64,000 nucleotides of DNA from Trypanosoma brucei. Its lineage: Eukaryota. Positions within the stretch are counted from its first letter, which is position 1, and every line of letters starts with the position of its first letter. The stretch spans positions 3,552,001 through 3,616,000 of the forward strand of contig CM000208.1 of the NCBI GenBank assembly GCA_000002445.1. The letters are read 5' to 3'. The notes beneath the pieces were generated by a model. It saw only the letters and a list, made by a program, of their open reading frames with translations. It was not told the origin of the DNA and made no database searches. This document shows positions 1,262-56,601 of the stretch, piece after piece. The translations under genes and the position numbers were made by a program.

Positions 1262-3403
1262 ATGCTTCGTCGAGCATGCCTTGCTGGTAGGGTGAGCGCC
1301 ATCGCTACCCCTGGGTTTGCTACTTGTAAAATACTTTCAAGTGTTTCCTCCAGTGGGAACGACAAGAAAAACACTAAGGCTGGACTGCTGTCTGGAAGTG
1401 GAAGTGAAGGACATCATACTGGTCCTATTCCTGGCGCCACTGGGAAGGATAATCGACAGGGGATATATTCTACAAGGGGTTCACCTTCCTATTTTGAGAA
1501 ACGCTATCCCCGAAAAGAAGGCGAGTTGGTGAGTAAGCAGGTTGTGGATCCAAATGAGCCAAGAGATCGCTCTGATAATTTGAAGGCTCCTGAGTTTGAT
1601 ACTTCGTTAGGCAAGTTTGAGCAAGCACCATACTTTACTGGAGGACCTGGTGCCATGAGGTACAATAACTATGTGCGGGAACCGGTGGATAAAGAAGGTG
1701 TAGATTATCGTGATGTTGTTCCACTTCCGCCATTTGAGGACCATCACCCAGATTTCTCGTACGCATCAGCGACAGGAAAGCGCGAGGGGGACATTACCCT
1801 TTTAGCAAACACTGTCGTAAACTGGGAGATAAAGGCCGCTATGATGTCTCTCTATCGCTCTTGCCTTAAGGGGCTTCCAATGGTTAAACACTACTACTGG
1901 TTGCTTACGCCACTGCCAGAGATGAAATCGAAGATACGAGAGCGTTTCCTTCAAAATCAGCACACGAAAGATCCTGATGCTATTAGACATTTGTTACATA
2001 ATGGATGGATGGAATACCAGGAGGTTATTTTGTTTAGGCGAACACGGGCATCGGTTGCCAAATTTTTTGAATGGGAAAGCCAAGACGAACTTGTGCGTGG
2101 CTACACACGGGAGGAGGGGAAGATGCAAGAGGAACGCGCCTTCTGGAACGGAGAGGAACAACGAAGGGAGGGCCCATATGATGGACATTGGTCTTGGCTC
2201 GGAAAGGAGAGCGAAAAGGAGTTCGCTAAGATTGCAGGTAGGATTCCCATTTCGTGGTCGACGTCGAAAGGCTACTTTGAAAAAGGACAAGCTGATGGCA
2301 CCAATTATTGGGAGAAAAACCTGGATTACGAAGGTTGGTATATTAAAAATGTGGACCCTGATCGCCAGAACGCAAGGCGTGAAATGCAGGGTTGGATTGA
2401 AAGCGGGTATAACCAACCGAAACATTATGCTAGCAAAAACAGACGTGGGTATCGTAGACTTGTTAAGGACATTGAAACTATGATGGAAACTTCGATGGAG
2501 GATTTATATACAAAGAACAGAGAACAGCTGTTCCAATACCTTATTAGGGAAACACATCCGGAATCAAATCGTATTAACGCGGAACGTGTTCTTGCGAGAC
2601 AAGACGATGACTTTTACTCTACGAGGTTTGATGAGTACGAGAAATACCTGAAGCAGGCAATGCGTGAGATGCCCAACCCGCGCTTATGGAAGACTGATGC
2701 TTTTTACTTTCGATTACGGTACCTGCTTGCTCCCCTCGAATACAACTGGGCAAAGGTTCCTATTGGTATATCGCAGGAGAAGTTGTACAACGAATGGATT
2801 TCTGACAACGCCAACTACGCAATTTTAAACAGTGCAACGTTTTCAAATATAAAGAACAATAAACTAAAAAATCCAATGGCCAGAACCTGGGCCGATTTTT
2901 ACAACGACTACGATCCAGATGTCCCGGAGACGCGGAGACTTCCTTGGTATCATCCCGATTTTGACTATGATCGCCGGCACAAATGGGATGAAAGGTGCAT
3001 GCGAATGAAGCGGTGGGTTCAGGGGGGAACTATTGACGGCAAGCTGCCATACTTCGACAGTATCATAGCCGAGTGGGAACAATATGTCAATCGTCCTGAG
3101 CGATTTCGAGCCTCGGATAGTGCTGAGCGTCGGTATGCCGCCCCAAGAATGGTTCAGCTCTATCGGTCGTTGAACCGGTTAATGGATGTTGCCTTAGTAA
3201 ATCAAATGAGGGCTGTTGTGGAGAGTAGTCTCTTAAATACTCAAGTGGAGCTATCACGTGCCTCTGTTACGGACATCCAAAGGATGTTAATATCCGTGGA
3301 TTTCACGGACTTTCGATTCGTGGTTCCAACTATCATATACCCAGATGGGGTCCAGCAGCCGGTGGTAGGATTAGACGGAAATGTGGTTGTCTCGCAGATT
3401 TAG
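1262..3403 (+). CDS. Hypothetical protein (713 aa), W/Y/D/E-rich. The N-terminus MLRRACLAGRVSAIATPGFATCK resembles a mitochondrial presequence.
   Basis: Long ATG-initiated ORF. A polypyrimidine tract (1180-1244) plus AG (1245-1246) sits 16 nt upstream of the ATG. Codon usage matches the neighbouring genes. No recognisable catalytic motif. Confidence 0.55.
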   Translation: MLRRACLAGRVSAIATPGFATCKILSSVSSSGNDKKNTKAGLLSGSGSEGHHTGPIPGATGKDNRQGIYSTRGSPSYFEKRYPRKEGELVSKQVVDPNEPRDRSDNLKAPEFDTSLGKFEQAPYFTGGPGAMRYNNYVREPVDKEGVDYRDVVPLPPFEDHHPDFSYASATGKREGDITLLANTVVNWEIKAAMMSLYRSCLKGLPMVKHYYWLLTPLPEMKSKIRERFLQNQHTKDPDAIRHLLHNGWMEYQEVILFRRTRASVAKFFEWESQDELVRGYTREEGKMQEERAFWNGEEQRREGPYDGHWSWLGKESEKEFAKIAGRIPISWSTSKGYFEKGQADGTNYWEKNLDYEGWYIKNVDPDRQNARREMQGWIESGYNQPKHYASKNRRGYRRLVKDIETMMETSMEDLYTKNREQLFQYLIRETHPESNRINAERVLARQDDDFYSTRFDEYEKYLKQAMREMPNPRLWKTDAFYFRLRYLLAPLEYNWAKVPIGISQEKLYNEWISDNANYAILNSATFSNIKNNKLKNPMARTWADFYNDYDPDVPETRRLPWYHPDFDYDRRHKWDERCMRMKRWVQGGTIDGKLPYFDSIIAEWEQYVNRPERFRASDSAERRYAAPRMVQLYRSLNRLMDVALVNQMRAVVESSLLNTQVELSRASVTDIQRMLISVDFTDFRFVVPTIIYPDGVQQPVVGLDGNVVVSQI

Positions 3404-3820
3404 GAAACGTGAATTTTTATTCCTAGTTTTGTAGTATGTACGGCGAGGGCGCAAATATAGGGAAGAAAGGCGATAGGTAGGAAGGGCAACATTTTTTCTA
3501 TTTATTTTCTCAAATATTTTTCTAAATCTTCGCTTACGTTCGTTACGAATATAACTGCATATACGTATGTGAGTGGGTGATGATTTTTATTTTTTTAAAT
3601 ATCGTGGAAGATTCACTTAGCAGCGGTGTCCAGACAAAGGGACTATTTCCCCTTTCTTTCCCATTTTTATTATTACATCAAATGGTTGTGTATAGCCCAT
3701 TTCCGTTTAGATTTAACCTATTCCTGTACGAGGTGTGCAGTGTATGTTCATACATATTTTTTGCTTGCTCTTCAATTCAAATTTTCTTTATTCTTTAATT
3801 GCTAGTAGGTTGCATTGCGT

Positions 3821-3844
3821 TTCTGAATCTTTTTTTTTTTGAAG
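3821..3844 (+). promoter_or_regulatory. Poly-T tract plus AG: candidate trans-splice acceptor for the GNL3-like gene.
   Basis: tttctgaatcttttttttttttgaAG lies 21 nt before the ATG at 3865. Confidence 0.5.
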
Positions 3845-3864
3845 GTGCGCTCAGTAGAAGTCAA

Positions 3865-5910
3865 ATGCCTAAAGTAAAGAGTGGGGCTTCAAAGCGCGTG
3901 ACGTCCCGTCAGCGTCACAAGGTAGAGCGGAAGAAAAGGGAACATAAACGTGATCTACGTAAGGCAGCCAAAGCAATGAAAAAATCTGGACTGGGCCCGA
4001 AAAGGACGAAAAGGACTAGAGAGCTGGCGAGGTTGGCACTGAAAGTCTCAAATGCTCATCCTGACAAAGAAAGCATACTTCGACGAGTGCTTCAGGTCCG
4101 TGAGGAGGCCCGCGTCGAGCGGGGGAGACAGAAGGGCAAAAATAAAGAAGACAGTGATCATGAAGCTGCTAAAAATGTTGGGAAGTCGACCAAGGTAAAA
4201 GAGGGTAAGAAGTGCTTTACATTCATACCCGTTTCTGAATCCAATAACTTTTCTTATCAATTTAACAGAACCTTGATGGAATTGGTTTTCCCTACCTCCG
4301 AAACGTCTACCGAGGTACCTTCTGTCGCCTACGTGGTGACCCTCGACGCTCGATGTGCAGTCCAGTGCTTACCGTGGGGGCTTCTTGACGCTATCGTGCG
4401 CGAGGGCAATGCGTACAGGAACGCTGGGGGAAAAAGGAAGATACTGGTTCTATTCGCTCTCACCAAATGTGATCTTGTGTCGGTTCATGCGTTGATCAGT
4501 CAGATTTCTTTGTTGGCGCATGTGTTGTCCGAGCAATACATCGGTGTCAGTGACGGAGACGATGATTTGAATATTGGTGACAGCATTTATTTTACGTTCT
4601 GCCTGGTTTCGAATCGGTTTGAAAAAACCGTTCACCATCTGAGTACCCTTTTGAAACGGTTTCGTGCAAGCAATGGGTGCTCGAAGTATAATAATAAGAG
4701 CAATCTCAATGGAAAGATCTGTTGCTTCGTTATTGGTCTTCCAAACACGGGTCGGCGAACTTTGTGTCGCATGCTTTTTCAACACGACGACTCCAACACA
4801 AGTATCGTCCCAGTATCCGCTGCTCAGTTGCAGGTTGTAAATGGCCCCACTAATGAGTCGTGTGAGGGTCATGTGAAGTTTGCCTTTCCGAATGCAAAGG
4901 AAGTTACGGTGCTACAATTTCCGGAGGATGCCACTTTAAAGCGAGAACTATTCAATCTTTGCGGAAGTGAGGTTATATTTAAGCCTCAGACCTTTATTGA
5001 GAGCTTGGCTGACCCCGAGGTTGTTGGTCACGTGCTTTACGAAGCCGTAATGAACAAGGATGACCTGGCTCAGGGGTTCTGTCAACCTAATGAATGCAAC
5101 AGCGACACTACAAGTGAACGGAAGGAATTCTATGCTGCCAGACGCTTTTTTACACGACTGGGACAAACAGTGCGGAGGGAGAAGGGGTTTTACGTATCTC
5201 CATCACTTGTTTCTAACGCGGGAACGATGAGCAGAATGTGCAGCAGCTCCTTGACGGCTTCTACGACCTTCACCTCTTGTCAGCAGAGCACACAGAATGC
5301 CCCTCCTGACGCATCATACAGTAATGCAACCCCTAACAGACTTGTAAGAATTTCCTCCGTTGTTTCCAGAAGAAATGGGAAGAGGGGATGTACAACTCCT
5401 ATGAAGCGCGCTGATTATCGCAACGTGTTGAAACTGGGGGCACGCACGTTTATCCGTGAAATCCACCATGGAAGGAATGTCCCGTGGGCAGTGATGCGCT
5501 CTCCGTTGAAGGATTGCCTGACATTGTCGGATGTGGAGCGCGCCTCCACTATTTTTAACCTTTCCCTGTGCCTTGGTAAGGCTGTCGGCTCCGCCGAGGA
5601 TGCGAAAAGCCCTTCTGAGCATCTCACCGCGCTGCTGGATCACGTTGCCTCCCAGATGAAGCAGTATCTGGTGTTGCTGCCGAACAGCGTTGTCGAATTT
5701 AGTCCCAGTTCTATTGTGGCTCCTATCCATAAATTGGGTTTCACTCGAGAGAACGAGGGAGGATCAAATGGTTGTGGGGATGAGGACGAAGAAATTGAGG
5801 ATTATTGTGAAGGTGAGGAAGAGTGTGAGGATGACGATGAACAAGATGAAGGGGATGATGAAGAAAATGAAGACGAGTCGGAGGAGGGAGAGGATGATCG
5901 ATCTTGTTGA
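3865..5910 (+). CDS. GNL3/nucleostemin (Nug1)-like circularly permuted GTPase, divergent. It has a basic N-terminal domain, a G4-like TKCD, a G1-like GLPNTGRRT and an acidic D/E tail.
   Basis: N-terminus PKVKSGASKRVTSRQRHKVERKKREHKRDLRKAAK parallels the GNL3 basic domain ([37 protein letters not shown]). LTKCDL (G4) comes before VIGLPNTGRRTL (G1), the permuted order. C-terminal DEDEEIEDYCEGEEECEDDDEQDEGDDEENEDESEEGEDD. The ORF track starts at 3799, but the poly-T tract and AG (3821-3844) lie inside that extension, so I chose the ATG at 3865 (MPKVK). Confidence 0.5.
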   Translation: MPKVKSGASKRVTSRQRHKVERKKREHKRDLRKAAKAMKKSGLGPKRTKRTRELARLALKVSNAHPDKESILRRVLQVREEARVERGRQKGKNKEDSDHEAAKNVGKSTKVKEGKKCFTFIPVSESNNFSYQFNRTLMELVFPTSETSTEVPSVAYVVTLDARCAVQCLPWGLLDAIVREGNAYRNAGGKRKILVLFALTKCDLVSVHALISQISLLAHVLSEQYIGVSDGDDDLNIGDSIYFTFCLVSNRFEKTVHHLSTLLKRFRASNGCSKYNNKSNLNGKICCFVIGLPNTGRRTLCRMLFQHDDSNTSIVPVSAAQLQVVNGPTNESCEGHVKFAFPNAKEVTVLQFPEDATLKRELFNLCGSEVIFKPQTFIESLADPEVVGHVLYEAVMNKDDLAQGFCQPNECNSDTTSERKEFYAARRFFTRLGQTVRREKGFYVSPSLVSNAGTMSRMCSSSLTASTTFTSCQQSTQNAPPDASYSNATPNRLVRISSVVSRRNGKRGCTTPMKRADYRNVLKLGARTFIREIHHGRNVPWAVMRSPLKDCLTLSDVERASTIFNLSLCLGKAVGSAEDAKSPSEHLTALLDHVASQMKQYLVLLPNSVVEFSPSSIVAPIHKLGFTRENEGGSNGCGDEDEEIEDYCEGEEECEDDDEQDEGDDEENEDESEEGEDDRSC

Positions 5911-6162
5911 GTGGACTGCACGGGTAGGGCATATAACAGTAGCGTTTAAGTGGGATAATAAGAAGGGAATTTAAAATCCACCCCGTGTTTTCAAATGCAA
6001 TTGGAACTGCATTAACACTATGCAAAAATATTCATTTTCTGTTACTATACTTGTTTCACCTCCTGCTTTAAGCAAAAATTTTTTTGTTTCCTTTATCCCA
6101 ATGTCGTTGTGTGGTCAACTTTGTCTCGTTCCGGTACGGGGGAACAACTGAAGGCGAGGTGC

Positions 6163-8715
6163 ATGGCAGAACATGCTTTTGCGTCCGAGACTAAGTATGG
6201 TCGTAGGCTGAATATGTATTTGTGTCACTGTTCCTCCGAAGAGGCAATTTTCCCTGCGACTGCGTTACGCTTGCACACCCAAACCTCAACCGGTTGGCAA
6301 TCTGCCAGGTTGTGTACATATCCTCAAGAACTTGGACTCAGTTTCAGTGGCGAAGTGGAGCTAGATTATATTCGTGTACTTTGTCACGAAAGCAATATAC
6401 CAACACGCATTGAAGTATTCGTTGCTGAGGCTAGTGATGGGAGCACAAAGTTGAATGTGGTTACGCCCTACGAAAACAGCAACTTTCAGCGGATAGGTTA
6501 TGTGCACTTTTCTGCTGGGAATGAAAGTGCAGTCGGTATCCGTGAACTTAAGACCATTAAAGTGTGTCGCAAGTGCGTTTTCGTAAAGTTTTTGATACTA
6601 AATCCATATAGTTCCAGTTTCAATACCTTTAATCAAGTGGGTATCATTGCCATGGCGGGCCACGGGCGGCTTGTGAAGAGTATACAACGTGAATCCACAA
6701 AGCGCATATGCGTGGTTGGGGAAACGGTGGAGGTGCCGCTGGAGAAGATGTTGCCACCGATATTAAATAAGTTACCATCTGCTCCTTCGGGATCCGATAA
6801 GTTCGGGGAGGTCGACGCCGTAACGAGACGCCGCCTTGCGGAACTTCTTCGTGTAAAAGAGCATGCAGTGATGACCGAGGATTATGACCTAGCTGGTGCG
6901 TTGAAACCAGTGCTGGCCACTTTGGAGGATGTTGGAAGGGAGATTTACGCATTAGAGCAGCGGAAAAATGCTGCCGTGGAGGAGGAAGACTATGCTTCCG
7001 CGAAGAAGTTAAGGGATGATATCGAGGGTATGCGGAGAACCGCCTACTTGGTCTCGATAAATCGGGTACACACGATTCGTAGAAGGTCAGTCGACAACGC
7101 AGTGGAAGTGCGGAATATTCAACACAACAATATATGTTCAGATGAAAAGCAAAAGGAAGAAAATCAATGCAGGGGTCTTTCACCACCTCCAGCGCCTAGG
7201 GTGTTTTCACCTTCGACGTTTGATGAAATGCCTGTAGGTGGTGCTGGATACTACCGACTCGTTGACGGCGAAACGGGTGCAAACGACCGGAACCACGGTA
7301 TTGCGGATGTCGTCGGTGATGTAGATGTACTTTCTGCATGTGTCATTCAAGGGAAAGAGAAATGGGAGGAGCTACTTCTTCGTGCAATAGTAACGATTTC
7401 TGGTTGTCAAAGTCTTGAGCTTGACGTAGAAGACGAATCGGTTGCGGAGGGAAAGAGATTCGAGAAGGTGTTCGGGTCTGTTTGTTGTGGCTGCTTATTT
7501 GGGAAAAGGGGGAAACTTCGGGAGGCAGCCATTCGAGCCATATGCACCCCATCTGTTTTTGTTTCTCTTTTGGGCCACGCGGATAACATTACGGAAATGC
7601 TACTTTCGTACGTGGTTCTTCCCACTCGTGGCCTAAACGATGCGACTACGTCAGTTGTCATCGCTTCTTGTGACGCGGTTCGTGCAATTGCCGAACAGTT
7701 AGAGGGAGTTCCACCGTTATCATCTCTGAATTCACACTTATCACCAGTTTTGTCGGCTCTAGTGGCCCGCCTAGGTGACAGCAACAACCGTATACGGGAG
7801 CGCGCAGAATCTGCTCTTCTATCAGTTGCCAAATCAGCGCTTGATGTCGTTGTGGTGGCCCTGGTTAGCAACCCCCAAAAGAAGAAACAACATACGGTGC
7901 CGCATAGGGTGCACGCCTCGCGCATAGCTGTACTGAATAACCTGGTAGATATGTACGGTGCCGACGGTGCAGTTTCAACAAATCTTGAGGCCCAAAATAT
8001 TCTTTCAGAAGTTGTGCTGCCCTGTATGCAGCACTCTAGCGGTGAGGTGCGGGACGCCGCAAGTTCCCTCTTTGCTAAGTTATTACTTGTCGCCCCCAGT
8101 ATTGCGCAAAGGAGTATCGGAGTTCTTAAACCAACTCAGTGGAGTGCCGTCGAACATTATTTGTCTGAGCTGACGGGCGGGGCGTGCGATGAGGGATTTT
8201 CTCGGGAGGTTGATACCAGTGATAGATTGCTCCCAAGGACCGGATTTGTTCCGTGTGCGACGCCAACTTCTGCTGAATCCGTAACAGGAAGTGCCTCTGC
8301 AGGACGTGACGCTGCATCAAAAACGTGTCATTTTTGTGGAGAATTCAACGAAGGGTTTGTGGAAGCCTCTTTGGATATTCACTTCATTCGCGCGTGCCCC
8401 ATGCTTTGCCCATGTCCTTTGTGTGACCAGGTTACCGAAATCGCAACGTTGCAACAGCACCTCACTGGCGAATGCGAGAACCGGCATTTGGTTCGTGAAT
8501 GCCCGAGATGCAAGGAGGCGGTGCGCGTAGAGGATATCGAGAGACATATTGCAGCAGAGTCCTGCATCAAAGCAGTCCCCACGCACAGCGTTTGTCCACT
8601 CTGCCACGCGCGGTTCAAGGCTGGAATGAAAGGGTGGTTAACACATTTGGCAGCGCCTCCAGGTTGCCCAAAGAACCCCAAAAAGTACGATGGATCAGGG
8701 CCCATTACCGAGTAG
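6163..8715 (+). CDS. CEP104: CEP104/FAP256 homologue (ciliary tip protein): N-terminal jelly-roll-like domain, central HEAT/TOG-like region, C-terminal Cys/His zinc-finger array.
   Basis: RLCTYPQELGLSFSGEVELDYIRVLCHESNIPTRIEVFV...FQRIGYVHFSAGNESAVGIRELKTIKV...NQVGIIAMAGHG aligns with human CEP104 FCQFPQEIVLQMVERCRIRKLQLLAHQYMISSKIEFYISE...FRRLGYVSLCDNEKTGCKARELKSVYV...NQVALVAINIIGD. C-terminus CHFCGEFNEGF...CPMLCPCPLCDQV...ECPRCKEAVRVEDIERH is ZNF-like. Start moved from 6109 to the first ATG after polyY+AG (6079-6153). Confidence 0.7.
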   Translation: MAEHAFASETKYGRRLNMYLCHCSSEEAIFPATALRLHTQTSTGWQSARLCTYPQELGLSFSGEVELDYIRVLCHESNIPTRIEVFVAEASDGSTKLNVVTPYENSNFQRIGYVHFSAGNESAVGIRELKTIKVCRKCVFVKFLILNPYSSSFNTFNQVGIIAMAGHGRLVKSIQRESTKRICVVGETVEVPLEKMLPPILNKLPSAPSGSDKFGEVDAVTRRRLAELLRVKEHAVMTEDYDLAGALKPVLATLEDVGREIYALEQRKNAAVEEEDYASAKKLRDDIEGMRRTAYLVSINRVHTIRRRSVDNAVEVRNIQHNNICSDEKQKEENQCRGLSPPPAPRVFSPSTFDEMPVGGAGYYRLVDGETGANDRNHGIADVVGDVDVLSACVIQGKEKWEELLLRAIVTISGCQSLELDVEDESVAEGKRFEKVFGSVCCGCLFGKRGKLREAAIRAICTPSVFVSLLGHADNITEMLLSYVVLPTRGLNDATTSVVIASCDAVRAIAEQLEGVPPLSSLNSHLSPVLSALVARLGDSNNRIRERAESALLSVAKSALDVVVVALVSNPQKKKQHTVPHRVHASRIAVLNNLVDMYGADGAVSTNLEAQNILSEVVLPCMQHSSGEVRDAASSLFAKLLLVAPSIAQRSIGVLKPTQWSAVEHYLSELTGGACDEGFSREVDTSDRLLPRTGFVPCATPTSAESVTGSASAGRDAASKTCHFCGEFNEGFVEASLDIHFIRACPMLCPCPLCDQVTEIATLQQHLTGECENRHLVRECPRCKEAVRVEDIERHIAAESCIKAVPTHSVCPLCHARFKAGMKGWLTHLAAPPGCPKNPKKYDGSGPITE

Positions 8716-9610: not shown

Positions 9611-9642
9611 TTGTTTGTATTCCATCCTTAATTGTGCTGCAG
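9611..9642 (+). promoter_or_regulatory. Polypyrimidine tract plus AG: candidate trans-splice acceptor for the kinesin-14 gene.
   Basis: ttgtttgtattccatccttaattgtgctgcAG lies 5 nt before the ATG at 9647. Confidence 0.5.
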
Positions 9643-9646
9643 AAAG

Positions 9647-12109
9647 ATGTCTGTGGAACAACCCGAGCAGCAAATAAGTGGACTTCTGGAGCAGCTGTAC
9701 CACAGTTCCAACGTGTCCGCAGAGCGTGAAACCATTATGAACCTGTCGAACGTCGTCAGGCAAGGAGGCGCAGAGTTTCTGCTTGACGTCGTCAAAACCA
9801 ATTTGAAGAGTGGAGTGCCCGAAAAGCAGGAGGCAAGTATGACCATTCTGGACGAGGTGACTCTCAACTGTGGTCCGTCGTTTGCTGTCATGCTTTCCTC
9901 ACAAAAGTGGATGGATCGCCTTATCAAGTTGGCTAAGGCAGGGCCGCCACAAGTAACTACCAAGATAATTTCTACTGTCATTGGGTGGCAAAAGCGGTAC
10001 CACACTGTTTCCTTTGCCCAGTGCATCAAGAAGCTGTCTCAGAGCAAAACTACGGGTGAGGCGTGCAAGCAGGCACTGCGTCAGGCAGGGGATGATGGTA
10101 CCGGGTCCTCACTGGGTTACGACGCGAGTTCTCCTGCTTCTCTGCGTTCGACAGGAGTAACCGACAGCCGGAAAAGTAAGAAGTGCGATGCCGTGTTGGC
10201 CGAGCTTCAGAGTGACCTTGTTTCTCTGGAGTACTCCCTTGAGAACCCCAAGTTTGTCCAGGATGATGCCATTGCAAGGGAGTGCAAGAATCACAAGATG
10301 AAGTGCATGCAAATGTTGGAATCAGGAAGCTATGAAAGCATTGCATCTGATCTTATGCAGTTGATTGAGCGCTTTTCCCGCGCTCTCGAGCTCTACGAAT
10401 GCATGACAGGCGTTGATTTGGGTGAGGGTGAAGCGGCAAGGTCGCGGGCTCTGACGAGGGGTAAGGATAATGGCGGTGACAGTGATGACGAGTACTCGAA
10501 ACAACTCCGTGCTCGCGTTGCGCCTAAAAATGCCCAACAAGTTATGCTTCAGGCTCAGGAAGCTACACAGCAGCTCGTGGAGAAGGAGCGTCATGAAACG
10601 ATGCAGCTGCGTACTCAGCTTGAGGAAATGCGCCGTAAGTACGAAGACATGCATAACAAGTACAAGGATGCTAAGGCAAGAAATAAAGAAGCGGTGGGTG
10701 CCTTGCAGGAGTATGCTAAACGCATAGAGGTGCTCGAGAAAAGCGGGGGCGGCGCCGCAGCCGCCGCTGCCGCACTGCCACCACCACCGCCTATTTCTGA
10801 AGAGAAAGACAAAGGAAAAGATAAATCGGGACCTGCCCTTAATGTGGGGCCAATAGCAACGGCCATGAGGGACACTGTGCAGGTTTTACGGCAGTCGCTG
10901 CGTGAGGTGCGGGAGCAGTACGTAAGCGATATCCAAAAGGAAAGCGCATATTACTCCTCTCAGCTCACTAGTGCTATTGCTTCGATTGCCGCTGCTGCCG
11001 AAAAGGATCGCGGTTCTAACAGCCAACTGTTGGTTCGCACCCAGGAGTTGTATAAGAGGGAAATGAAGCTGCGTAAGCAGTACTACAACCAGATTCAGGA
11101 GTTGAAAGGCAACATTCGTGTGTATTGCCGTGTTCGTCCCCTGCTACCAAGGGAAGTTGCTGCTGGCCATACGAATATTATGGACTTCCCCTCTGCCGAC
11201 GAGATCAGGGTCAACGATCCCGCTGGCCGGCAGAAGGTTTACGAGTTTGATGAAGTGTACCCGCCGCATGCACCCCAGGCCCGTGTCTTTGAAGACACGT
11301 CGCCTCTCATTGACAGCGTTGTGGATGGCTACAATGTTTGCATCTTTGCCTACGGCCAAACGGGAAGTGGCAAGACCCATACAATGGGTGGGTACGGGGA
11401 AGACAGAGGTATCAACACCCGTGCCTTGCAGCGACTGTTTGAGATCATTGACGAACGTAAGGACACTGATGAATCTACCGTTACCGTCTCTGTGCTTGAA
11501 ATCTATTGCGAGATGATCCGAGACCTACTGGTTCCGAAGGAGAAGTCCAAGTCCACGACTTATGAGGTGAAGCAGGGTGGCCAGTTCGGTACCTATGTGA
11601 CAAACCTTTCCGAAGTTCCCGTTCAGTGCGCTGACGAAATTACAAAGATTATGGAGAACGCAAACAAAAACCGCAGTGAGGGCCAGACGAATATGAATGA
11701 ACACTCTTCCCGATCCCATATGGTTTTGTATATCACTGTCCGAACAACGAACAAGGAAACCAATATGCAGTGCTTTGGTAAGCTCTCGCTTATTGACTTG
11801 GCGGGAAGTGAGCGTCTCGACAAGACAGGTGCAGAGGGACAGATGTTGAAGGAGGCTGTGGCTATCAACAAGTCGCTATCGTCGCTGGGAGATGTCATCT
11901 CCGGGCTGGCGCAGAACAGCAAGCACATCCCATTCCGTAACTCCGTGCTGACGTACTTGCTGCAAGACTCCATGGGTGGACAGGCCAAAGTTTTGATGTT
12001 TGTCTGCGTCAACCCTGCAAGTTACAACGCCAGTGAAAGTAACAGTTCGCTTCAATTTGCCTCTCGCGCTCGTGGCGTATCTCTTGGCCAGATCAAGAAG
12101 AATCCATAA
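9647..12109 (+). CDS. Kinesin-14 (C-terminal motor) with an N-terminal VHS/ENTH-like domain and a central coiled coil.
   Basis: Motor at nt ~11110-12109: neck GNIRVYCRVRP, P-loop IFAYGQTGSGKTHTM, switch I SSRSH, switch II LIDLAGSE. Residues 1-140 (MTILDEVTLNCGPSFAVMLSSQKWMDRLIKLAK...KIISTVIGWQKRY) resemble the VHS-domain core (e.g. GGA1 VLEACMKNCGRRFHNEVGKFRFLNELIKVV...KVIELLYSW). The ORF-track start at 9632 is TTG. The ATG at 9647 follows an AG at 9641-9642. Confidence 0.85.
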   Translation: MSVEQPEQQISGLLEQLYHSSNVSAERETIMNLSNVVRQGGAEFLLDVVKTNLKSGVPEKQEASMTILDEVTLNCGPSFAVMLSSQKWMDRLIKLAKAGPPQVTTKIISTVIGWQKRYHTVSFAQCIKKLSQSKTTGEACKQALRQAGDDGTGSSLGYDASSPASLRSTGVTDSRKSKKCDAVLAELQSDLVSLEYSLENPKFVQDDAIARECKNHKMKCMQMLESGSYESIASDLMQLIERFSRALELYECMTGVDLGEGEAARSRALTRGKDNGGDSDDEYSKQLRARVAPKNAQQVMLQAQEATQQLVEKERHETMQLRTQLEEMRRKYEDMHNKYKDAKARNKEAVGALQEYAKRIEVLEKSGGGAAAAAAALPPPPPISEEKDKGKDKSGPALNVGPIATAMRDTVQVLRQSLREVREQYVSDIQKESAYYSSQLTSAIASIAAAAEKDRGSNSQLLVRTQELYKREMKLRKQYYNQIQELKGNIRVYCRVRPLLPREVAAGHTNIMDFPSADEIRVNDPAGRQKVYEFDEVYPPHAPQARVFEDTSPLIDSVVDGYNVCIFAYGQTGSGKTHTMGGYGEDRGINTRALQRLFEIIDERKDTDESTVTVSVLEIYCEMIRDLLVPKEKSKSTTYEVKQGGQFGTYVTNLSEVPVQCADEITKIMENANKNRSEGQTNMNEHSSRSHMVLYITVRTTNKETNMQCFGKLSLIDLAGSERLDKTGAEGQMLKEAVAINKSLSSLGDVISGLAQNSKHIPFRNSVLTYLLQDSMGGQAKVLMFVCVNPASYNASESNSSLQFASRARGVSLGQIKKNP

Positions 12110-18569: not shown

Positions 18570-18650
18570 AAGGTAATCTTCTTGTTTATTGCCTAATTAT
18601 TCCAGTTGCTGTTTCGCACTCTTTCTGTTGCGCCGCGCGGCTCCTACACA
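18570..18650 (+). promoter_or_regulatory. Polypyrimidine tract plus AG: candidate trans-splice acceptor region for the EHD-like gene.
   Basis: cttcttgtttattgcctaattattccAG followed by ttgctgtttcgcactctttctgttgcgcc, upstream of the ATG at 18687. Confidence 0.45.
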
Positions 18651-18686
18651 GAGGCAGTGAACAGACGATATTCCACAAGCGAACCA

Positions 18687-20240
18687 ATGAGTTCGGGTAA
18701 TAGGGACCTTTCAGTGGACAATCCGTTGCAATGGAGAGATCTTAATAACACAGAGGAATTTATGCGAAAATTGCATGAGATTTACATGAAAAGTGTGAAG
18801 CCTCTTGAGGACATATACCTGTATGAGGTACTTTCCCCTCGGTGGTTTGAAGAGACTCTTTCCAGTTATAAACCTATAGTTACCTTCTTGGGACCGTGGT
18901 CAGCCGGGAAGAGTACATTTATTAATTACCTCTTGCAGGACAATTACCTTTTTACGGGACCTCAGCCAACCACTTCAGAGTTCACCGTCATCACTTATGG
19001 CGATGATGTGACCACGTTGGACGGTCACGTCGTTGCCAGCACAAAGGACCTCCCTTTTAGGGCTTTAGCCAACTTCGGAGAGGGATTTATGGGCAACTTC
19101 TGTGGGTTGCAGGTCCCGCATGAGCTCTTAAAGCGTGTTGTACTCGTTGACACTCCAGGTGTGTTGGAAAATTCCACCGACGATAGGGAGCGGCGCTACA
19201 ATTATACTGAAGTGTGCCGATGGTTCGTGGAACGTAGTGACATGGTTTTCCTGCTGTTTGACCCCGCTAAGCTCGACGCTGGTACCGAGTTGCGTAATCT
19301 GTTCAGGTACACTTTCAAGGGAATGGAGGGGAAACTTCGCATTGTTCTAAATAAGGCCGACAGTGTCGCGAAAAAGGAACTGATGCGTGTGTACGGCAGC
19401 CTTTTTTGGAATCTGTCTACGTTGATTCGCTGCACAGAACCACCGCGGGTGTACATTGGCAGTTTTTGGGATCAGCCGTACAAACCGGGTACGTTTGCGC
19501 TGCTCTTCACGAAGGAAAAGGAGGATCTGCTTTATGAGCTGACGGAGTTGGTTCCCCGGCAGGCACGGGACAGAAAAGTCGCTGCTCTTATAAGCCATGC
19601 AAAGAAAGTCGTTTGCCACGCGTACATTGTAGGTGGAATCCGGGCAGATCTCCCGATGTTTTTCGGTAAAGAAAAGGCTAAACGCAAAGCATTGGAGAAT
19701 TTGCCGAAAACATATCAGTTGGTTGCATCCAGAAATCGACTCAGCCCGAAGGATCTTCCTCCTGCGCAGCTGTACCATGAATACTTCGAGAAGGTGCACC
19801 TTGAAAAACTCCCAGATATAAAAAAGGTTGAGAAAACGGGGATGATAACGACCGCTCAACATTACATTTGCAATATTTTGCCCAGTATGTTCTACCCTAT
19901 GAAGCAAGTCCCCGTTCCAGACCCACGGAATAAGACGGAACAAGGGAAGTTGCGGGAAATGTACTACGGGGGTCTGCGTGACCAATATGATGGAAAGGAA
20001 GGTAAACAGGGAAGCAGTGATACAGTGCCAATCGCCTTTCGGGAGACCGCGCTTGGTCCAAATCCAGAACTACGTGGTGGATGCGGCCAGCTTACTGTGC
20101 CGGGGGCAACGGCAAACACCACTCCCGCTATGAATAACGTCCAAATGAATGAACAGCAACAACAAATGCTCATGCAGATGATGATGATGATGCAGCAACA
20201 GCAGCAGCAAGGGAACAACCAGTTCTATGCTCCACGGTAG
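18687..20240 (+). CDS. EHD-family dynamin-like ATPase (EHD/sarcalumenin G-domain) lacking the C-terminal EH domain. Ends in a Q/M-rich tail.
   Basis: VTFLGPWSAGKSTFINYLL...GPQPTTSEFTVI...VVLVDTPGVLE...RIVLNKADSV...LMRVYGSLFWNLS...RVYIGSFWDQPY aligns collinearly with EHD1 LFLGQYSTGKTTFIRYLL...GPEPTTDSFIAV...ISIIDTPGILS...RVVLNKADQI...LMRVYGALMWSLG...RVYIGSFWSHPL. C-terminus MNEQQQQMLMQMMMMMQQQQQQGNNQ. The ORF-track start at 18606 is TTG. The first ATG is 18687, after polyY/AG (18570-18650). Confidence 0.8.
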   Translation: MSSGNRDLSVDNPLQWRDLNNTEEFMRKLHEIYMKSVKPLEDIYLYEVLSPRWFEETLSSYKPIVTFLGPWSAGKSTFINYLLQDNYLFTGPQPTTSEFTVITYGDDVTTLDGHVVASTKDLPFRALANFGEGFMGNFCGLQVPHELLKRVVLVDTPGVLENSTDDRERRYNYTEVCRWFVERSDMVFLLFDPAKLDAGTELRNLFRYTFKGMEGKLRIVLNKADSVAKKELMRVYGSLFWNLSTLIRCTEPPRVYIGSFWDQPYKPGTFALLFTKEKEDLLYELTELVPRQARDRKVAALISHAKKVVCHAYIVGGIRADLPMFFGKEKAKRKALENLPKTYQLVASRNRLSPKDLPPAQLYHEYFEKVHLEKLPDIKKVEKTGMITTAQHYICNILPSMFYPMKQVPVPDPRNKTEQGKLREMYYGGLRDQYDGKEGKQGSSDTVPIAFRETALGPNPELRGGCGQLTVPGATANTTPAMNNVQMNEQQQQMLMQMMMMMQQQQQQGNNQFYAPR

Positions 20241-25525: not shown

Positions 25526-26383
25526 ATGAACGATGCCGGTATGGGAAACTGGAGGGGGCCGCACATGGAAGTGAATGCCTCAGTTCCTCACAGCGGCGGC
25601 CCAATAATGACGCCCGCCGACGCCTACCGCGCTGCTCACGGCTCAATTCTTAAACTCCAACAGGGTTTGATTGGCCATGAGGAACAAGTAATGGGAGTAG
25701 TGCATCACATTCACTCTCTTGTCAGCGTGATTGAATCTCTACGGAAGCATTATGAAACGGTGGTAGAGGAACGGGATTACATTAAACGAACTCTGGAGGA
25801 GGCGGAGGAACGTTTGAAGGGTGTTCAGCGCTTACTGCAGCGCTACACGTCGGTAAATGATCCCGTGGTTGCCTCGGATGGGTACACTTACGAGCGGGAA
25901 GCGATCACCTCATACCTGGAGGAGTGCCAGTCGATGAATAATGTACCCGTGTCGCAACAAACAGGGGAGGAGCTGACGATGATGTTACTTCCCAATCGTT
26001 CTTTCCAGCGTTTTTTAAGCCAATTAATGGACGCAAAACCAGTGGAGGGCCGACACAGCAGCGGTAGCAGTGGAAACAGCAAGACTAACGCTACTGCCAT
26101 AAACACAGGTTCAGCAAATGGACAGAACACCGTAAGGGAAGAAATTGGAGGTGAAGACACTTCAGCGGGACCTAACAGTGAGCGATTGCACCCATGCATT
26201 CGGGTGTATGGCTACTGCAACTATAAGGATAGTTGTGCTTATGCGCTTTACCCATATGATGCTTGTCTTTCACATTTAAAGGGGAAATGCCGATTCCGCT
26301 CGCAGTGCCACGAGCGTCACGTGGACTTCCGTGGTCAATTAAATCAGGGCGATGCTGGTGGTGACACTCGAGGTGGTGGTTAA
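25526..26383 (+). CDS. U-box (PRP19-like) plus CCCH zinc-finger protein, paralogue A (285 aa).
   Basis: Coiled-coil, then U-box core YTSVNDPVVASDGYTYEREAITSYLEECQ...VPVSQQTGEELT (cf. PRP19 [44 protein letters not shown]). Then HPCIRVYGYCNYKDSCAYALYPYDACLSHLKGKCRFRSQCHERH = C-x6-C-x5-C-x9-C-x7-C-x5-C-x3-H, whose last four ligands form a canonical CCCH. Confidence 0.7.
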   Translation: MNDAGMGNWRGPHMEVNASVPHSGGPIMTPADAYRAAHGSILKLQQGLIGHEEQVMGVVHHIHSLVSVIESLRKHYETVVEERDYIKRTLEEAEERLKGVQRLLQRYTSVNDPVVASDGYTYEREAITSYLEECQSMNNVPVSQQTGEELTMMLLPNRSFQRFLSQLMDAKPVEGRHSSGSSGNSKTNATAINTGSANGQNTVREEIGGEDTSAGPNSERLHPCIRVYGYCNYKDSCAYALYPYDACLSHLKGKCRFRSQCHERHVDFRGQLNQGDAGGDTRGGG

Positions 26384-26405
26384 TGGCTGGTGTTATGAAA
26401 GGGGC

Positions 26406-26430
26406 GTGCGTGTGTGTGTGTGTGTGTGTG
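26406..26430. repeat. (GT)n microsatellite directly after the stop codon of U-box/CCCH paralogue A.
   Basis: gtgcgtgtgtgtgtgtgtgtgtgtg. Confidence 0.9.
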
Positions 26431-27448
26431 AGACATTGTTACGTTTTCTCTCGATTGATATATGCATATACATATATATACCAAAGGATGTATACATACA
26501 TATATTTCTGCTTCAGAGGGTTAAATGAGAAGGAAAAAAAAACTGAAAGTGTAAGTGAACATTTATGTGAACGTGTTAGTGCTTGCGTTTGTGAGGTACT
26601 GAGTCGTGGTGGGTTTGGGTACCACGGGTTGTGTGAGAATAACATGCAAGTGAAAGCCAGTGACTCGTCAGTGGAGGGTGGAGAAGAATGAAGTTGGAGG
26701 TTAAAATAAATGAGGTGATGCATCATACGGCCGGTTACCTCAACGTGTCGGGGGCTGCGGCGTTTTCGTTGTGTTGATGTGCTTTTTGGGGTCCACAACT
26801 CGAGCCGCACTGCTGCTTTTCTTTCTTTTTTTTTGTTTTGTTTTGTTTAGGATTTTGATTTTCTCCCTTGTATCCGTGGTTATGTTGTAGTTGGTGTTGC
26901 CCGGGATAAATTTCACATGCTTTTACCTGAGGATGCGGAAGGGAAGAAAACTGCTGTTTTGTTCGGTCGGTCGTTTTGTTTTCACTTTTATCTTCTTGGT
27001 AATAACTGTTTGTTCTTTTTGTTTTTTTTTGCTTTTTTTTTGTTTCGTTTTTTTAAAAATATTTTCCTCACCTCGATTCTCTCATTGTTGACGTTGTCGT
27101 TGATGGTTGCATTTCTCATTTTTCGTTTGTTTGTTTTGAATTAAAGTTTTCCTTTTATGTTTCCTCCACAGTTTCCCCTCTTCGATTCGGTACGATGTGC
27201 TTATTTTTCCTCACACACGCACGCACAAACTCCGCCTCCGGTCGCGTCTTCTCGTCGGAACTTCAACTGGAGGAGAGAAGAAATAATATATATATATATA
27301 TATTTAAAGAAAGAGAAAGAAATGAATTACAACAAAAGCAAATAAAAGAGTAAATAACGTAACGTCACGCAACGGAGGGGAGGGGAGGGGATGGAAGGGG
27401 AAAAGAAAAGTATGCGAGTGAATGTAATTGAATAAATGAAGTTAAGAA

Positions 27449-27471
27449 TATATATATATATATATATATAA
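27449..27471. repeat. (TA)n microsatellite. A second (TA)n lies at 27286-27304.
   Basis: atatatatatatatatatatata. Confidence 0.9.
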
Positions 27472-29160
27472 ACGGGTATGAATGGGGAGCAGGAGAAAAG
27501 AAGAGGGAAAAGAAAAGGGTGGGAAATGCAGGCGCATGTAACCAAGCAAGAACAACTGAATCAAATAAACAACATGACAAAAGGAAATAAAAGGGAAAAT
27601 GAAAGGGGATATAAAAGGAGGAGGAGGAGGAGAAAAAACAAAATTCCATAAAATGTCTTATGAGAAAAGGAAACACGGGTGGAAGGGGATGCCAATATTA
27701 GAGAGGGAGATTATTACTAGTAAAAGAAAGGTTTGATTAAGTGTGGGGAAAGGGCTGGTTTAACAACGATAATAACAAGGGGGGAGTGTTGCTTTTTATT
27801 TTGTTTCTGGTTGTTGTTGGTGTTGTTGGTTTTCTTTTCCTTTTTTTTTTGTGTGGGGAGGGAGAGGTGTGAGGAGTCGTGGGGGAGCTTTGTTAAATAG
27901 GGCGAAATGTTGCCATGAAAGGCGGTGAGGAAAGTAAAGGAAAGAAAAAAAAGGGTGGAAAGGAGTAATAATAAAAATAATAGTGGTAATAATAATAATG
28001 TGAGGGAGGGAGAGAGTGACACTTTCGCATTGCGCAACCGTCGTGCTTGTCTTCCTCTTTGGATGTCCGTTTTCCTTTTCTTTTCTTTTCTTTTTTTCTT
28101 TTTTGTTTTGTTTTGTTTTTTGAGCGAGAGAATGAGCAGGAGCGTCATGTTAACGGTGGACTGAATTGGTTTCCGTGTGCAAGTGATGTTGGAGAGAGAA
28201 ATGTGGGTTCATTTTATTTATATGTTGGACTCTTCACAGACTTTACTCTTCTTTCTTTTTCTTTTTCTTTTTGTTGTTGTTGTTGTTGTCAGCTTCCTCG
28301 TCCCCCGCGTGGCTTCACAAGCGTTGCTGAGGATTTGCTCATGCGCGCATGCTGTCGCTCAAAATCTCACAGAGAATGCAAAGGAAAAAAAAACATGTAA
28401 ACACAGAATAATATGCGCAACGTTTGCAGGGGGAATAGATGGCGACATTTTTCTTTTTCTTTTTTGTTTTGTTTTTCTTTTGTCATTCTTCTTCTGCGTT
28501 TTTTAAAGTTTTTTTAGTTTTTTTTCCCTCTTCTGTTCAGGTTCTTTGAAATTTTGTATATGTTATGAGTTTGGGCATCTTTTGCTCTTTGGTTACCGTA
28601 TTCTGCGTGAAGGAAGTTGTGAATGTTCGGATGGTAGAAACATTATGTCTTCGCGTTTGTAGTTGAATATGTGCGTGATTTTGCTTCCCCCTTTTTCGTT
28701 TGTTTTTTTTTGTGTTTTTTTTGTTTGTTTGTTTGCTTGTGTGTGTGTGTTTGTGTGTGTTTGTGTTTTCCCTCACCTTCACCACCAGTACCGTTTCTAT
28801 ATAAACACGGAAGGTGGAAATAAAACGAAAAAAAAAAAGAAGAAACGAAGCAAAACAAAAAAAAACTAATAATAATAATAAGGCAGGTACAAAAGGAAGC
28901 AAATAAACCTGGGTGACACGAAGTTATTGTGTGAGTTCCATGGAAGATCTTATTTTTGCAGAAACAAGTGTTTGGATATCCCCATGTGTCCGCGTATTTG
29001 CGGAGAATGCGAAGGGTAATCACACATTTCTGTGCTTCAAAGAAAAAAACAAACAAACAAATAAATAAATAAATGTATAAGTTGAGTGGGTGTTTTTGTT
29101 TTTTTTTCATGCGTTTGTTTGGCGTGCGTTCAAACTCTCTAGTCAGTTTCGTTCTGCCCT

Positions 29161-29222
29161 TGTTTTTATTTTTATTTTTATTTTTATTTTTATTTTTGTA
29201 CTTTTCTTTTCTTTTCTTTTTT
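29161..29222. repeat. Hexamer (TTTTTA)6 followed by a pentamer (CTTTT)n.
   Basis: tgtttttatttttatttttatttttatttttatttttgtacttttcttttcttttctttt. Confidence 0.9.
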
Positions 29223-29323
29223 ACTTTACTTTTCATGCCTCCTTTCCTGCCTCTCATACATACCAAACACACGCGCATAAACATTTCTCCTTTCTTTTCT
29301 ACAGTGACATAGCACAACTACAA

Positions 29324-29370
29324 CTGCTGCTGCTGCTGCTGCTTCTTCTTCTAGAGGAGGAGGAGGAGGG
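29324..29370. repeat. Adjacent trinucleotide runs (CTG)6(CTT)4 ... (GAG)5.
   Basis: ctgctgctgctgctgctgcttcttcttctagaggaggaggaggagg. Confidence 0.9.
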
Positions 29371-30418
29371 AAGCAGAAACTTGCAGACCTGCATGCTTTT
29401 CTTTTTTCTTTTTCATTTCATTTCATTTCTTTTTTTTTTGTTACCTCTTCCTTTTCTTTTTTCTTTCTTGTTAACGAAAGGAAAACGAAAAAAAAAATGA
29501 GAAAAATGAAAAGAAGAAGAGAGAACACACGAGTATCATTTGCTGTTGTTACGTACGCTTCACATACTCTTCCACCATACTCTCTCTCCCCCTCCATCTG
29601 TCTTAACTGTACTGCTGTCTGTTTATTGTTGTTTTTCTCGCACTTATCTGAACGGCATGACTACTGTTATGATATTCTCATCTTTTTGTCGCCCTATTGT
29701 TTTCTTTTTTCTTTTTTATTTTTTTACTTTTTGCTTCTTTGTATAAAAGTGTATGTCTATATAACAGTGAAGCGAGAAAGTATGAGATGTTATCATTGTT
29801 CATCCTTTACTTCCCTGATCCGCAAAACCCCTTAAAAAAAAAAAGAGAAAAGAGGAAGAGAGAAAGAAAAAAAAAAAAAGAAACACCTCTCCCTCCCCTC
29901 TTCCCTATTTCATTATATCGCCCCACCTCCCATCTCTTCTCTCCGTCTTTTGTTTACCTGATGTGGCTTTTTAAACCGGTTCCCGCATGCCGGAAATGAC
30001 TGTGCAGCGACTTGGGCATCGCTTTTATTTCATTTGTGCATAATGTGATGCAGGGGAGGAGATGGGTTGGGGTTAATGAAACCAGACACCACCACCGTGG
30101 GCTCATGAGGAGAGTGTAGTGGTAGTGGTGGTGGTGGTGGTGGGTTGTAGAGGGAGAGGGAATTCCATACGTGCGGGTAGGATTGCCTTTCCGTGCATAT
30201 ACACGTGTGGAGGGAAAAATAAATTGTGTTATTTAACGGCTTCACGAAGGGGGAGGGTGGGTGGTTTGCAAGGGAAGTTCTGTGGGAAGGTAAGCCATAG
30301 AGGTGCGTATGTGTACGTGCGTGGGGGTAGAAATCGGAACAAAATGGACAATGACCTGCCAGCGTGGTGCTATTGCGATGTGATTTGTGTTCCATTTTGA
30401 CGTTTCTTGCAGGGTGTT

Positions 30419-35350: not shown

Positions 35351-35411
35351 ATTTTTGTTGCTGCCGTTGACTGTTTCTTTATTTGCATTTAATTAAATCT
35401 CAAACAAAAAG
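35351..35411 (+). promoter_or_regulatory. Polypyrimidine tract plus AG: candidate trans-splice acceptor for IFT52.
   Basis: atttttgttgctgccgttgactgtttctttatttgcatttaattaaatctcaaacaaaaAG lies upstream of ATG 35443. Confidence 0.45.
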
Positions 35412-35442
35412 AAAAAAATCGTACACTCACAACTACTTTGCC

Positions 35443-41865: not shown

Positions 41866-42763
41866 GAACCTGAAGGTTTTGGATATGGTGTTCGTGATGA
41901 AGGCGGGAGGTTTTGATGCCTATGCGGAGGTGGGTGGAGGGGGGTGGTGAAGGATTGGACAAGGCTGCGTGAAGAAAGGAGGGAAGAGAAGAAGAAGAAT
42001 AGGAAATTGCATTGTGTAGTAGTGCTGGCTGTTAAATCAAGGACCCTATTTGTTAGTGCAGGAGTGTATAGATCAACAACAAGGACAGCGGGAAGTTTTA
42101 TAAAGGAGGAGGAAGGAGAAAGTTTGGGAGTATCATGTGGGGTAAATGGAAGGAAGGGAGAGTACTTGCTTCTGCTCAGCACCTCTTAGCCTTCCTCTCG
42201 TTTTCCCACCGTTTCTTGGTTTTGCGTGCCAACTCTCTTAGAGGTGAATGCTTTTATATTATATTTTACTTTTTAACCTTGTCTTTACTTCTGAGCCTGG
42301 CATCTCTTATTCCTCTACGTTGCTACTAAAGACACGGTGCAAGCGATGCCTTGCGTGCATAATTTGCGGACCTTAACGGATGAATGTCTTGTACCGTGTT
42401 GGAAAGGGAAAAGAATGTGAACATGCGGAGAGAAAACAGTTTTCCCCCCCTTTCCCCGTGACATGTGGACGCTTTTTTATTCTTCTATCTACACAGTCGC
42501 ACGCGGGAGCGCATCCGCACTGCTAGGTTTTTTTCTTTTCGCGCACCGTGAATTGTTTCTTCCCGTTTGTCGAATGACACTTTTGTTTCGGTTTGACGAC
42601 TGAAGTGTGCCAAAGCTGATCAAGACAGAGGAAGGTTGTACATTAGGAGGTGTGGAGAGCGAGAACAGCCGGAAATCCAGTGAAGCCAAAGGAACATCTG
42701 CTTATATACTCAGGGACGCGAGAGAGCAAAAGGGTTGGTAGAGGATATTTGGACGGAGCAGCA

Positions 42764-56552: not shown

Positions 56553-56557
56553 CATAA

Positions 56558-56600
<43 letters not shown>

Positions 56601-56601
56601 A
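56553..56601. repeat. Compound (CA)n(TA)n microsatellite. A second (TA)n lies at 56675-56698.
   Basis: aacacacacacacacacacatatatatatatatatatatatatataatg. Confidence 0.9.

Follow-up and report, generated by a model that had tools for sequence, protein, structure and literature searches.

A Nug1/GNL3-like protein of Trypanosoma brucei with replaced catalytic motifs: a putative pseudo-GTPase conserved across kinetoplastids

The DNA analyzed here, referred to as the window, is a 64,000-nucleotide stretch of the Trypanosoma brucei TREU927 genome (GenBank assembly GCA_000002445.1, contig CM000208.1, positions 3,552,001 to 3,616,000, forward strand). Near its start lies a complete gene, by position presumably Tb927.10.14870, whose 681-amino-acid (aa) product belongs to the circularly permuted G-domain proteins of the YlqF type, with Nug1 and GNL3 as its nearest relatives; comparison of the predicted structure settles this point. 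The protein fits a pseudo-GTPase derivative rather than a GTPase, since the G1 and G3 features of the family are missing and matches to hidden Markov models (HMMs) stay below the curated thresholds. We are highly confident of the fold, the family and the dead motifs, taken by themselves. The whole picture, which we regard as probable, is that the protein is this lineage's counterpart of Nug1/GNL3(L), a hydrolysis-dead scaffold of the pre-60S particle whose pocket still holds a nucleotide.

The layout of the protein is listed below in window coordinates. Secondary structure and predicted local distance difference test (pLDDT) values are from an AlphaFold2 (AF2) model built from 24 orthologues, which has a mean pLDDT of 70.5 and values of 85–94 through most of the G-domain.

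3865..5910, + strand: complete coding sequence, 681 aa plus stop; the translation begins MPKVKSG
3907..4155, + strand: basic GN3L/Grn1-type N-terminal domain, residues 15–97; sub-threshold match to Pfam PF08701, predicted long helices
4210..4959, + strand: circularly permuted GTPase-like domain, residues about 116–365; motif order G4, G5, G1
4462..4473, + strand: G4 motif TKCD, residues 200–203, with T for the usual N; retained (read from the DNA)
4609..4611, + strand: Ser249, likely the G5 serine (P-[VF]-S); invariant in an alignment of 24 sequences
4735..4761, + strand: degenerate P-loop GLPNTGRRT, residues 291–299 (read from the DNA)
4915..4929, + strand: QFPED, residues 351–355, in the place expected for DxPG (G3), where the strand ends; AF2 strand 347–351, followed by helix 356–364
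4960..5739, + strand: mostly helical C-terminal domain, residues 366–625, from AF2 secondary structure and pLDDT
5197..5409, + strand: conserved S/T-rich segment within the C-terminal domain, residues 445–515; pLDDT <50
5740..5907, + strand: acidic D/E-rich tail, residues 626–681, predicted disordered (pLDDT <50); present in most orthologues

The family assignment comes chiefly from structure comparison. When the predicted model was searched against the PDB with Foldseek, the only matches below E 0.3 were human GNL3 (8fkt_NB, 2.2e-7) and C. thermophilum Nug1 (8i9t_CL, 8e-5), with alignments of ~600 columns to both chains. The model of a distant relative, P0054 (see below), gave GNL3 first (1.2e-8), then Nog2/GNL2, C. 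thermophilum Nug1, mitochondrial GTPBP7 and Lsg1, and all 16 of its matches at E ≤ 1e-3 are permuted ribosome-assembly GTPases. GNL3 therefore ranks first for both models, with C. thermophilum Nug1 also among the matches of each. In these comparisons the predicted T. brucei structure has the permuted-strand G-domain fold and the helical C-terminal domain of YlqF-related GTPases, and 230 of the 261 residues of bacterial YlqF align, so that part of the YlqF C-terminal domain is covered. A preliminary description of the gene, made from the sequence alone, had already placed it in the YlqF/GNL family close to GNL3/Nug1; the structure comparison, together with the profile-profile alignment given next, upholds that placement.

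The motifs follow the order of the YRG / HSR1_MMR1 GTPases, that is G4 ([NT]KxD), G5 and G1, with TKCD at residues 200–203, Ser249, and the P-loop at 291–299. As first described, LTKCDL (residues 199–204, nucleotides 4459..4476) precedes the G1 stretch VIGLPNTGRRTL (residues 289–300, nucleotides 4729..4764); Ser249 is taken as G5 because its position between the two fits the permuted order. The description had also contrasted the P-loop GLPNTGRRT with the family's G-x-P-N-V-G-K-S-S, and here too it was right: R297 (4753..4755, CGG) stands in place of the Walker-A Lys and R298 (4756..4758, CGA) in place of the Mg-binding Ser. Alignment by hhalign with 26 canonical exon fragments (probability 93.7%, E 2e-7) sets R297 opposite the Lys and R298 opposite the following Ser, and R297 again falls opposite the Lys when the partners are Nug1, Grn1, GNL3 and Nog2 segments from PDB alignments (probability 93.2%, E 2.9e-7). 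Weak phmmer alignments to GNL3 and Nug1 have the identical P-loop register. The exon-sized fragments were retrieved with a short profile of the canonical P-loop, which returned no full-length canonical proteins; the columns G-[FY]-P-N-V-G-K-S-S are invariant in all 26, as they are in the GNL3, Grn1 and Nug1 chains of the PDB, while Nog2 reads GYPNTGKSS. A sequencing error as the origin of R297 is excluded by its conservation across species and by the CGG codon, which is two base changes away from Lys and so is not a single-base error.

Two further motifs of a working G-domain are replaced or unrecognizable. No DxPG or DxxG occurs in the protein downstream of the P-loop, in agreement with the preliminary description, and QFPED occupies the expected site at the end of strand 347–351. 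The residue-for-residue register of QFPED against DxPG is probably as given, but it was taken from the strands of the model, as was that of G2, because hhalign of the G1–G3 segment aligned G1 only. For G2, the weak phmmer alignment to GNL3 sets A319 opposite the Thr, and the switch I region gave no significant alignment. Neither the GxxxxGK[ST] of G1 nor the DxPG of G3 that mark YlqF-related GTPases is therefore present. In sum, the protein retains the P-loop glycine scaffold, TKxD and the G5 Ser but has other residues for the Lys, the Mg-binding Ser and the Asp and Gly of G3. As a separate observation, T348 (in residues 348–355, window 4906..4929), downstream of A319, hardly varies in any part of the wider family; T348 and the pair E354/D355 might be left over from G2, form a new acidic site or pair with R297/R298.

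The altered state is highly conserved. A first search returned 45 full-length relatives from Trypanosoma, Leishmania, Leptomonas, Phytomonas, Novymonas, Angomonas and the free-living Bodo saltans. The preliminary description had proposed checking the Lys-to-Arg change in orthologues: the Walker-A position is Arg in 50 of 50 kinetoplastid-type sequences, Bodo saltans included, and is followed by Arg in 46, by His in three and by Lys in one. G4 is TKxD in 48 of the 50, the exceptions being AKCD (Bodo) and TKME (Angomonas). Invariant in the 24-sequence alignment are G291, T295, G296, R297, L300, K201, D203, S249, E354 and D355, with T200 nearly so. Across the P-loop window (residues 291–300) the majority residue has a mean frequency of 0.93, far above chance given the value of 0.60 over the full protein. 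No other 10-residue window is as conserved except in the N-terminal domain, where scores of 0.92–0.98 are reached by windows that start at residues 18–28. The altered motif is therefore under purifying selection and not decaying. Catalytic motifs that are replaced, in a state that orthologues keep, are a mark of a pseudo-GTPase, and the earlier idea of a catalytically dead scaffold gains support from this pattern, as far as sequence can indicate activity.

Conservation also extends to the C-terminal domain, where the 24-sequence alignment has invariant GAR.F.RE and PWA motifs (columns G525, R527, F529, R531, E532, P540, W541 and A542). The S/T-rich segment has invariant residues of its own (L463, F469, S486, A488 and P490) and most of it is missing in the distant Lys-type relatives described below; folding might require the pre-ribosome, or the segment may be a region of phosphorylation.

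The origin of the change can be followed in more distant proteins (27–38% identity), all metagenome and SRA sequences, that were recovered by an exhaustive search with HMMER. Their N-terminal domain and their C-terminal GAR.F..E and W motifs match those of the kinetoplastid proteins, while the P-loop varies as follows.

Lys-type relatives: P0053 and P0054, GKST; P0055, GKSS; P0058, GKTA with NKAD; P0059, GKSV; P0060, GKTT with NKCD
Arg-type relatives: P0056, GRST; P0061, GRTA; P0062, GRSA; P0063, GRTS

Because distant relatives read GK[ST], two of them with NKxD, the Lys-to-Arg change is derived. The Lys-type relatives have ADD, ADS or HDQ at the G3 site, and no member of the wider family has DxxG at that position. 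In a rough midpoint-rooted neighbor-joining (NJ) tree, Lys-type P0053 and Arg-type P0056 adjoin the kinetoplastid GRR clade, and Arg-type P0061 and P0063 stand beside Lys-type P0059. This rough tree suggests that the Walker-A Lys was replaced more than once, and that G3 had already gone by then.

Gene order ties these relatives to the T. brucei locus. The genes for P0054 (Lys) and P0056 (Arg) each lie directly downstream of an NDUFA6 gene (locus L001, 7527..9764; locus L003, 6063..8228) whose product is 50–51% identical to that of the T. brucei upstream neighbor, on compact contigs with called genes running almost entirely in one direction. On account of this shared neighbor and setting we take both as positional orthologues, and the NDUFA6 plus GNL3-like pair, arranged alike in two distant relatives, as an old syntenic block. 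Architecture, synteny and the graded series with GK[ST] and NKxD relatives together suggest that the T. brucei protein is the lineage's own diverged Nug1/GNL3 counterpart and not an extra copy. On this point we depart from the preliminary description, which had called it a paralogue.

The proposed mechanism is as follows. The protein would dock on nucleolar pre-60S particles through its conserved N-terminal domain, as Nug1 does, and would serve there as a structural scaffold or placeholder instead of a GTP-driven, Mg-dependent hydrolytic switch. The preliminary description had suggested that loss of the Lys might abolish nucleotide binding; since TKxD and the G5 Ser are nearly invariant, the base-binding pocket appears to be still in use: GxPxTGRR, TKxD and the Ser would most likely hold a guanine nucleotide permanently without Mg, with R297 and R298 offsetting the phosphate charge. 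Release from the particle would then be powered by other remodelling factors and not by the protein's own GTP hydrolysis.

Several observations weigh against this proposal, some of them concerning the family link itself. Pfam GN3L_Grn1 (PF08701) matches residues 15–97 at E 3.4e-4 with 21.1 bits, short of the gathering score of 22.3, and Pfam MMR_HSR1 does not match the protein. The HMM test of the family assignment raised in the preliminary description is thus borderline: the N-terminal part is backed by PF08701 being recorded for about 15 orthologues and matching 7 of 16 wider-family members (best E 8e-5), while the GTPase part finds no match, and even the distant Lys-type relatives reach only E 0.005–0.04 with MMR_HSR1, below the cut-off. 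NCBIfam YlqF TIGR03596 gives E 0.024 and 14 bits against a cut-off of 208. In a PDB sequence search the family profile found Nug1 as its one match (E 0.94), and Nug1 was the best match of P0060 (E 0.0078). The exhaustive HMMER search with a profile of residues 112–625 against 1.84 billion representative proteins returned 27 proteins, all of the same family, and no canonical GNL3. An assignment from sequence alone was accordingly rejected as insufficient, given the sub-threshold Pfam match, the YlqF E-value and the weak P-loop matches in the PDB; because the HMM searches yielded no canonical GNL3, the family link is drawn from the predicted structure and from profile alignments of 27–42 columns. 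As to function, a protein whose Mg ligands appear lost might just as well bind no nucleotide; orthology to Nug1/GNL3 is putative, and a canonical kinetoplastid copy is possible. A hydrolysis-dead member of this family is not harmless everywhere, because human GNL3L needs hydrolysis (PMC12956347), and our literature search found no localization, RNAi-phenotype or nucleotide-binding data on the gene.

Of the alternatives, the one that survives best is a pseudo-GTPase with no nucleotide at all, in which the protein's own side chains (e.g., R297/R298 together with E354/D355) fill the phosphate and Mg site and the G-domain serves purely as a rigid module for binding RNA or protein. In keeping with this, other residues stand in place of the Mg-binding Ser and of the G3 Asp and Gly, no G2 Thr can be aligned, and the Arg-Arg and Glu-Asp pairs are both invariant and co-occur only in the kinetoplastid-type clade. 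We nevertheless consider it unlikely, as the guanine-recognizing TKxD and the G5 Ser are nearly invariant, which is hard to explain without any nucleotide.

An extra paralogue beside a canonical Nug1/GNL3, with a regulatory or lineage-specific job (for example, in connection with the fragmented large-subunit (LSU) rRNA), is in our judgment quite unlikely. It would account for a central region that has diverged beyond HMM recognition of GNL3 and for the conserved, kinetoplastid-specific S/T-rich insert at residues 445–515. It sits poorly with the full Nug1 architecture, including a putative pre-60S docking domain that is the most conserved part of the protein, and with the graded series from NKxD plus GK[ST] down to TKxD plus GRR at one syntenic locus. 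Nor was a second kinetoplastid family seen among the matches of two full-length searches, including those of a wide-family profile at E ≤ 10, all of them known orthologues, though candidate selection was not exhaustive.

Two further explanations can be dealt with briefly. A GTPase or nucleotide switch that still works, by unusual chemistry in which the P-loop Arg and an E354/D355 pair akin to Walker B take over, would suit a site that must be functional somehow, given the strong conservation of the P-loop, TKxD and acidic pair, and most members do keep the Asn of GxxNxGKS, a K+ ligand in Nug1. But the Lys, Mg-binding Ser and G3 Gly are replaced, no G2 Thr aligns, and a Lys-to-Arg replacement in P-loop NTPases typically abolishes hydrolysis, all of which makes it very improbable. 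That the whole resemblance is an artefact of a K/R-rich N-terminus and a chance Gxxxx G motif is barely conceivable, even with Pfam matches below the curated thresholds: structure searches with two family members independently returned permuted ribosome-assembly GTPases alone at the top, the profile-profile E-value is about 2e-7, and the N-terminal similarity spans specific invariant positions beyond composition, so we reject the purely compositional N-terminus that the preliminary description had named as a way to be wrong.

Our preferred reading, a hydrolysis-dead Nug1/GNL3 counterpart, gives a predicted function to what has been a conserved "hypothetical protein" of trypanosomes. The family of the gene is not new, as public databases already flag its N-terminal domain. 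Three points seem not to have been described before: the conserved Arg-Arg P-loop, the step-by-step and probably repeated disappearance of catalytic motifs in the wider clade, and the implied use of a hydrolysis-dead Nug1 in kinetoplastid 60S assembly. A text search of the literature returned no paper that names Tb927.10.14870 or deals with the gene and none that combines Nug1 with Tb927 identifiers; "Grn1 putative GTPase" had no matches, and Nug1 with T. brucei gave a single, irrelevant one. Nug1, GNL3 and Nog2 are not mentioned in a review of the trypanosomatid nucleolus, the gene is not listed in two searchable T. brucei proteomic supplements, and YRG family papers, a ribosome-biogenesis inventory and a TbMex67L study offered nothing usable on it. 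We know of no described pseudo-GTPase form of Nug1/GNL3, nor did a literature search find one.

A bolder version can be put forward more tentatively. It is quite possible, although we would stop short of calling it probable, that this protein is the sole kinetoplastid Nug1/GNL3, so that a whole eukaryotic class builds its 60S subunit with a naturally GTPase-dead Nug1; that among the wider set of relatives DxPG was lost first and Lys changed to Arg several times independently; and that kinetoplastids fixed the outcome as an Arg-Arg P-loop with a Mg-free guanine nucleotide, or else an rRNA phosphate, as its ligand. Nug1/GNL3 proteins are regarded as switches of 60S assembly, yet yeast genetics suggests that hydrolysis is dispensable whereas human GNL3L needs it. 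A lineage that has lost the catalytic residues and keeps the pocket under strong selection lets one ask what the G-domain is for. If the proposal is true, kinetoplastids offer a natural experiment in which the essential role of Nug1 is independent of GTPase activity, and a release mechanism unlike that of human GNL3L. It raises the questions of what frees a dead GTPase from pre-ribosomes and whether an Arg-Arg P-loop is able to hold a nucleotide without Mg. Nug1 is essential in yeast; should the same hold for this gene, the wide divergence of its product from the human homologues would matter in practice.

The gene model itself is well defined. The translation is identical over its full length (100% identity and full coverage) to T. 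brucei TREU927 protein XP_827965.1 (UniProt Q388B9), and the start ATG at 3865 lines up with orthologue N-termini in the alignment of 24 kinetoplastid sequences. The mechanical open reading frame (ORF) begins 22 codons upstream, at a TTG (window 3799..3864), and the T. b. gambiense model of the gene has 721 aa compared to 681; the orthologue alignment favors the ATG at 3865. The identifier Tb927.10.14870 would follow from the flanking genes NDUFA6 (Tb927.10.14860) and KIFC1 (Tb927.10.14890).

1262..3403, + strand: NDUFA6, LYR-motif complex I subunit, Tb927.10.14860, 713 aa; upstream neighbor
9632..12109, + strand: TbKIFC1, C-terminal-motor kinesin, Tb927.10.14890; two genes downstream

All long ORFs of the window except one are on the + strand, as expected for a trypanosome polycistron. 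A few other features of the window were recorded. At 713 aa, NDUFA6 looks very long for a LYR-motif subunit. In TbKIFC1 a VHS domain lies at the N-terminus (Pfam E 1.8e-8), so that a kinesin of minus-end type is joined to a module of vesicle sorting. Genes for CEP104, IFT52 and IFT80 and a weak, sub-threshold CFAP68-like match form a set of cilium/flagellum genes within a ~40-kb stretch of the same polycistron (6109..8715, 35383..37410, 39517..41865 and 42650..44032, + strand). An EHD/dynamin-family protein at 18606..20240 (+ strand) has a clear MMR_HSR1 match (E 1.1e-7), where the Tb927.10.14870 protein gives none. The segments 26001..30000 and 56001..58000 are intergenic, with low GC (0.34–0.41) and strong skews, and are probably long intergenic or untranslated regions (UTRs).

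Among known systems, the closest are Nug1 (S. cerevisiae and C. thermophilum) and Grn1 (S. pombe), which are among the best sequence and structure matches and which, like the T. brucei protein, have a basic N-terminus (in T. brucei a sub-threshold GN3L_Grn1 match), a permuted G-domain fold, a C-terminal domain and an acidic tail. Where Nug1 has GYPNVGKSS, two G2 Thr and DSPG, the T. brucei protein has GLPNTGRRT, no alignable G2 Thr and QFPED; it also has additional strands between G1 and the site of G3, and the S/T-rich insert in its C-terminal half. The N-terminal domain of Nug1 targets the nucleolus and pre-60S particles and binds rRNA (PMC4770245). In yeast, each of the nug1 alleles K293A, T320A/T321A, D336N, G339A and N290L/D rescues the lethal deletion; hydrolysis-defective alleles grow as wild type, and only binding-defective ones are slow (PMC4770245).

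The human proteins GNL3 and GNL3L keep GKSS and NKxD, unlike the T. brucei protein. In human cells GNL3L must hydrolyze GTP to leave pre-60S particles, and 60S production depends on this hydrolysis as well (PMC12956347); judging by its motifs, the T. brucei protein could not run this mechanism canonically. Human GNL3 reads IIDSPSFIV (8fkp_NB, residues about 300–311), with DSPS for DSPG and hence Ser for the G3 Gly, so partial degeneracy of G3 already exists within the canonical family. Nog2/GNL2, Lsg1, Mtg1 and bacterial YlqF/RbgA have no GN3L/Grn1 domain at their N-termini, and their GKS and DxPG motifs are all canonical. Pseudo-GTPases in general keep the G-domain fold with catalytic residues replaced, in an altered state that orthologues conserve, and in this the T. 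brucei protein is like them; it differs from them in having kept the guanine-specificity motif while all of its Mg ligands appear to be gone.

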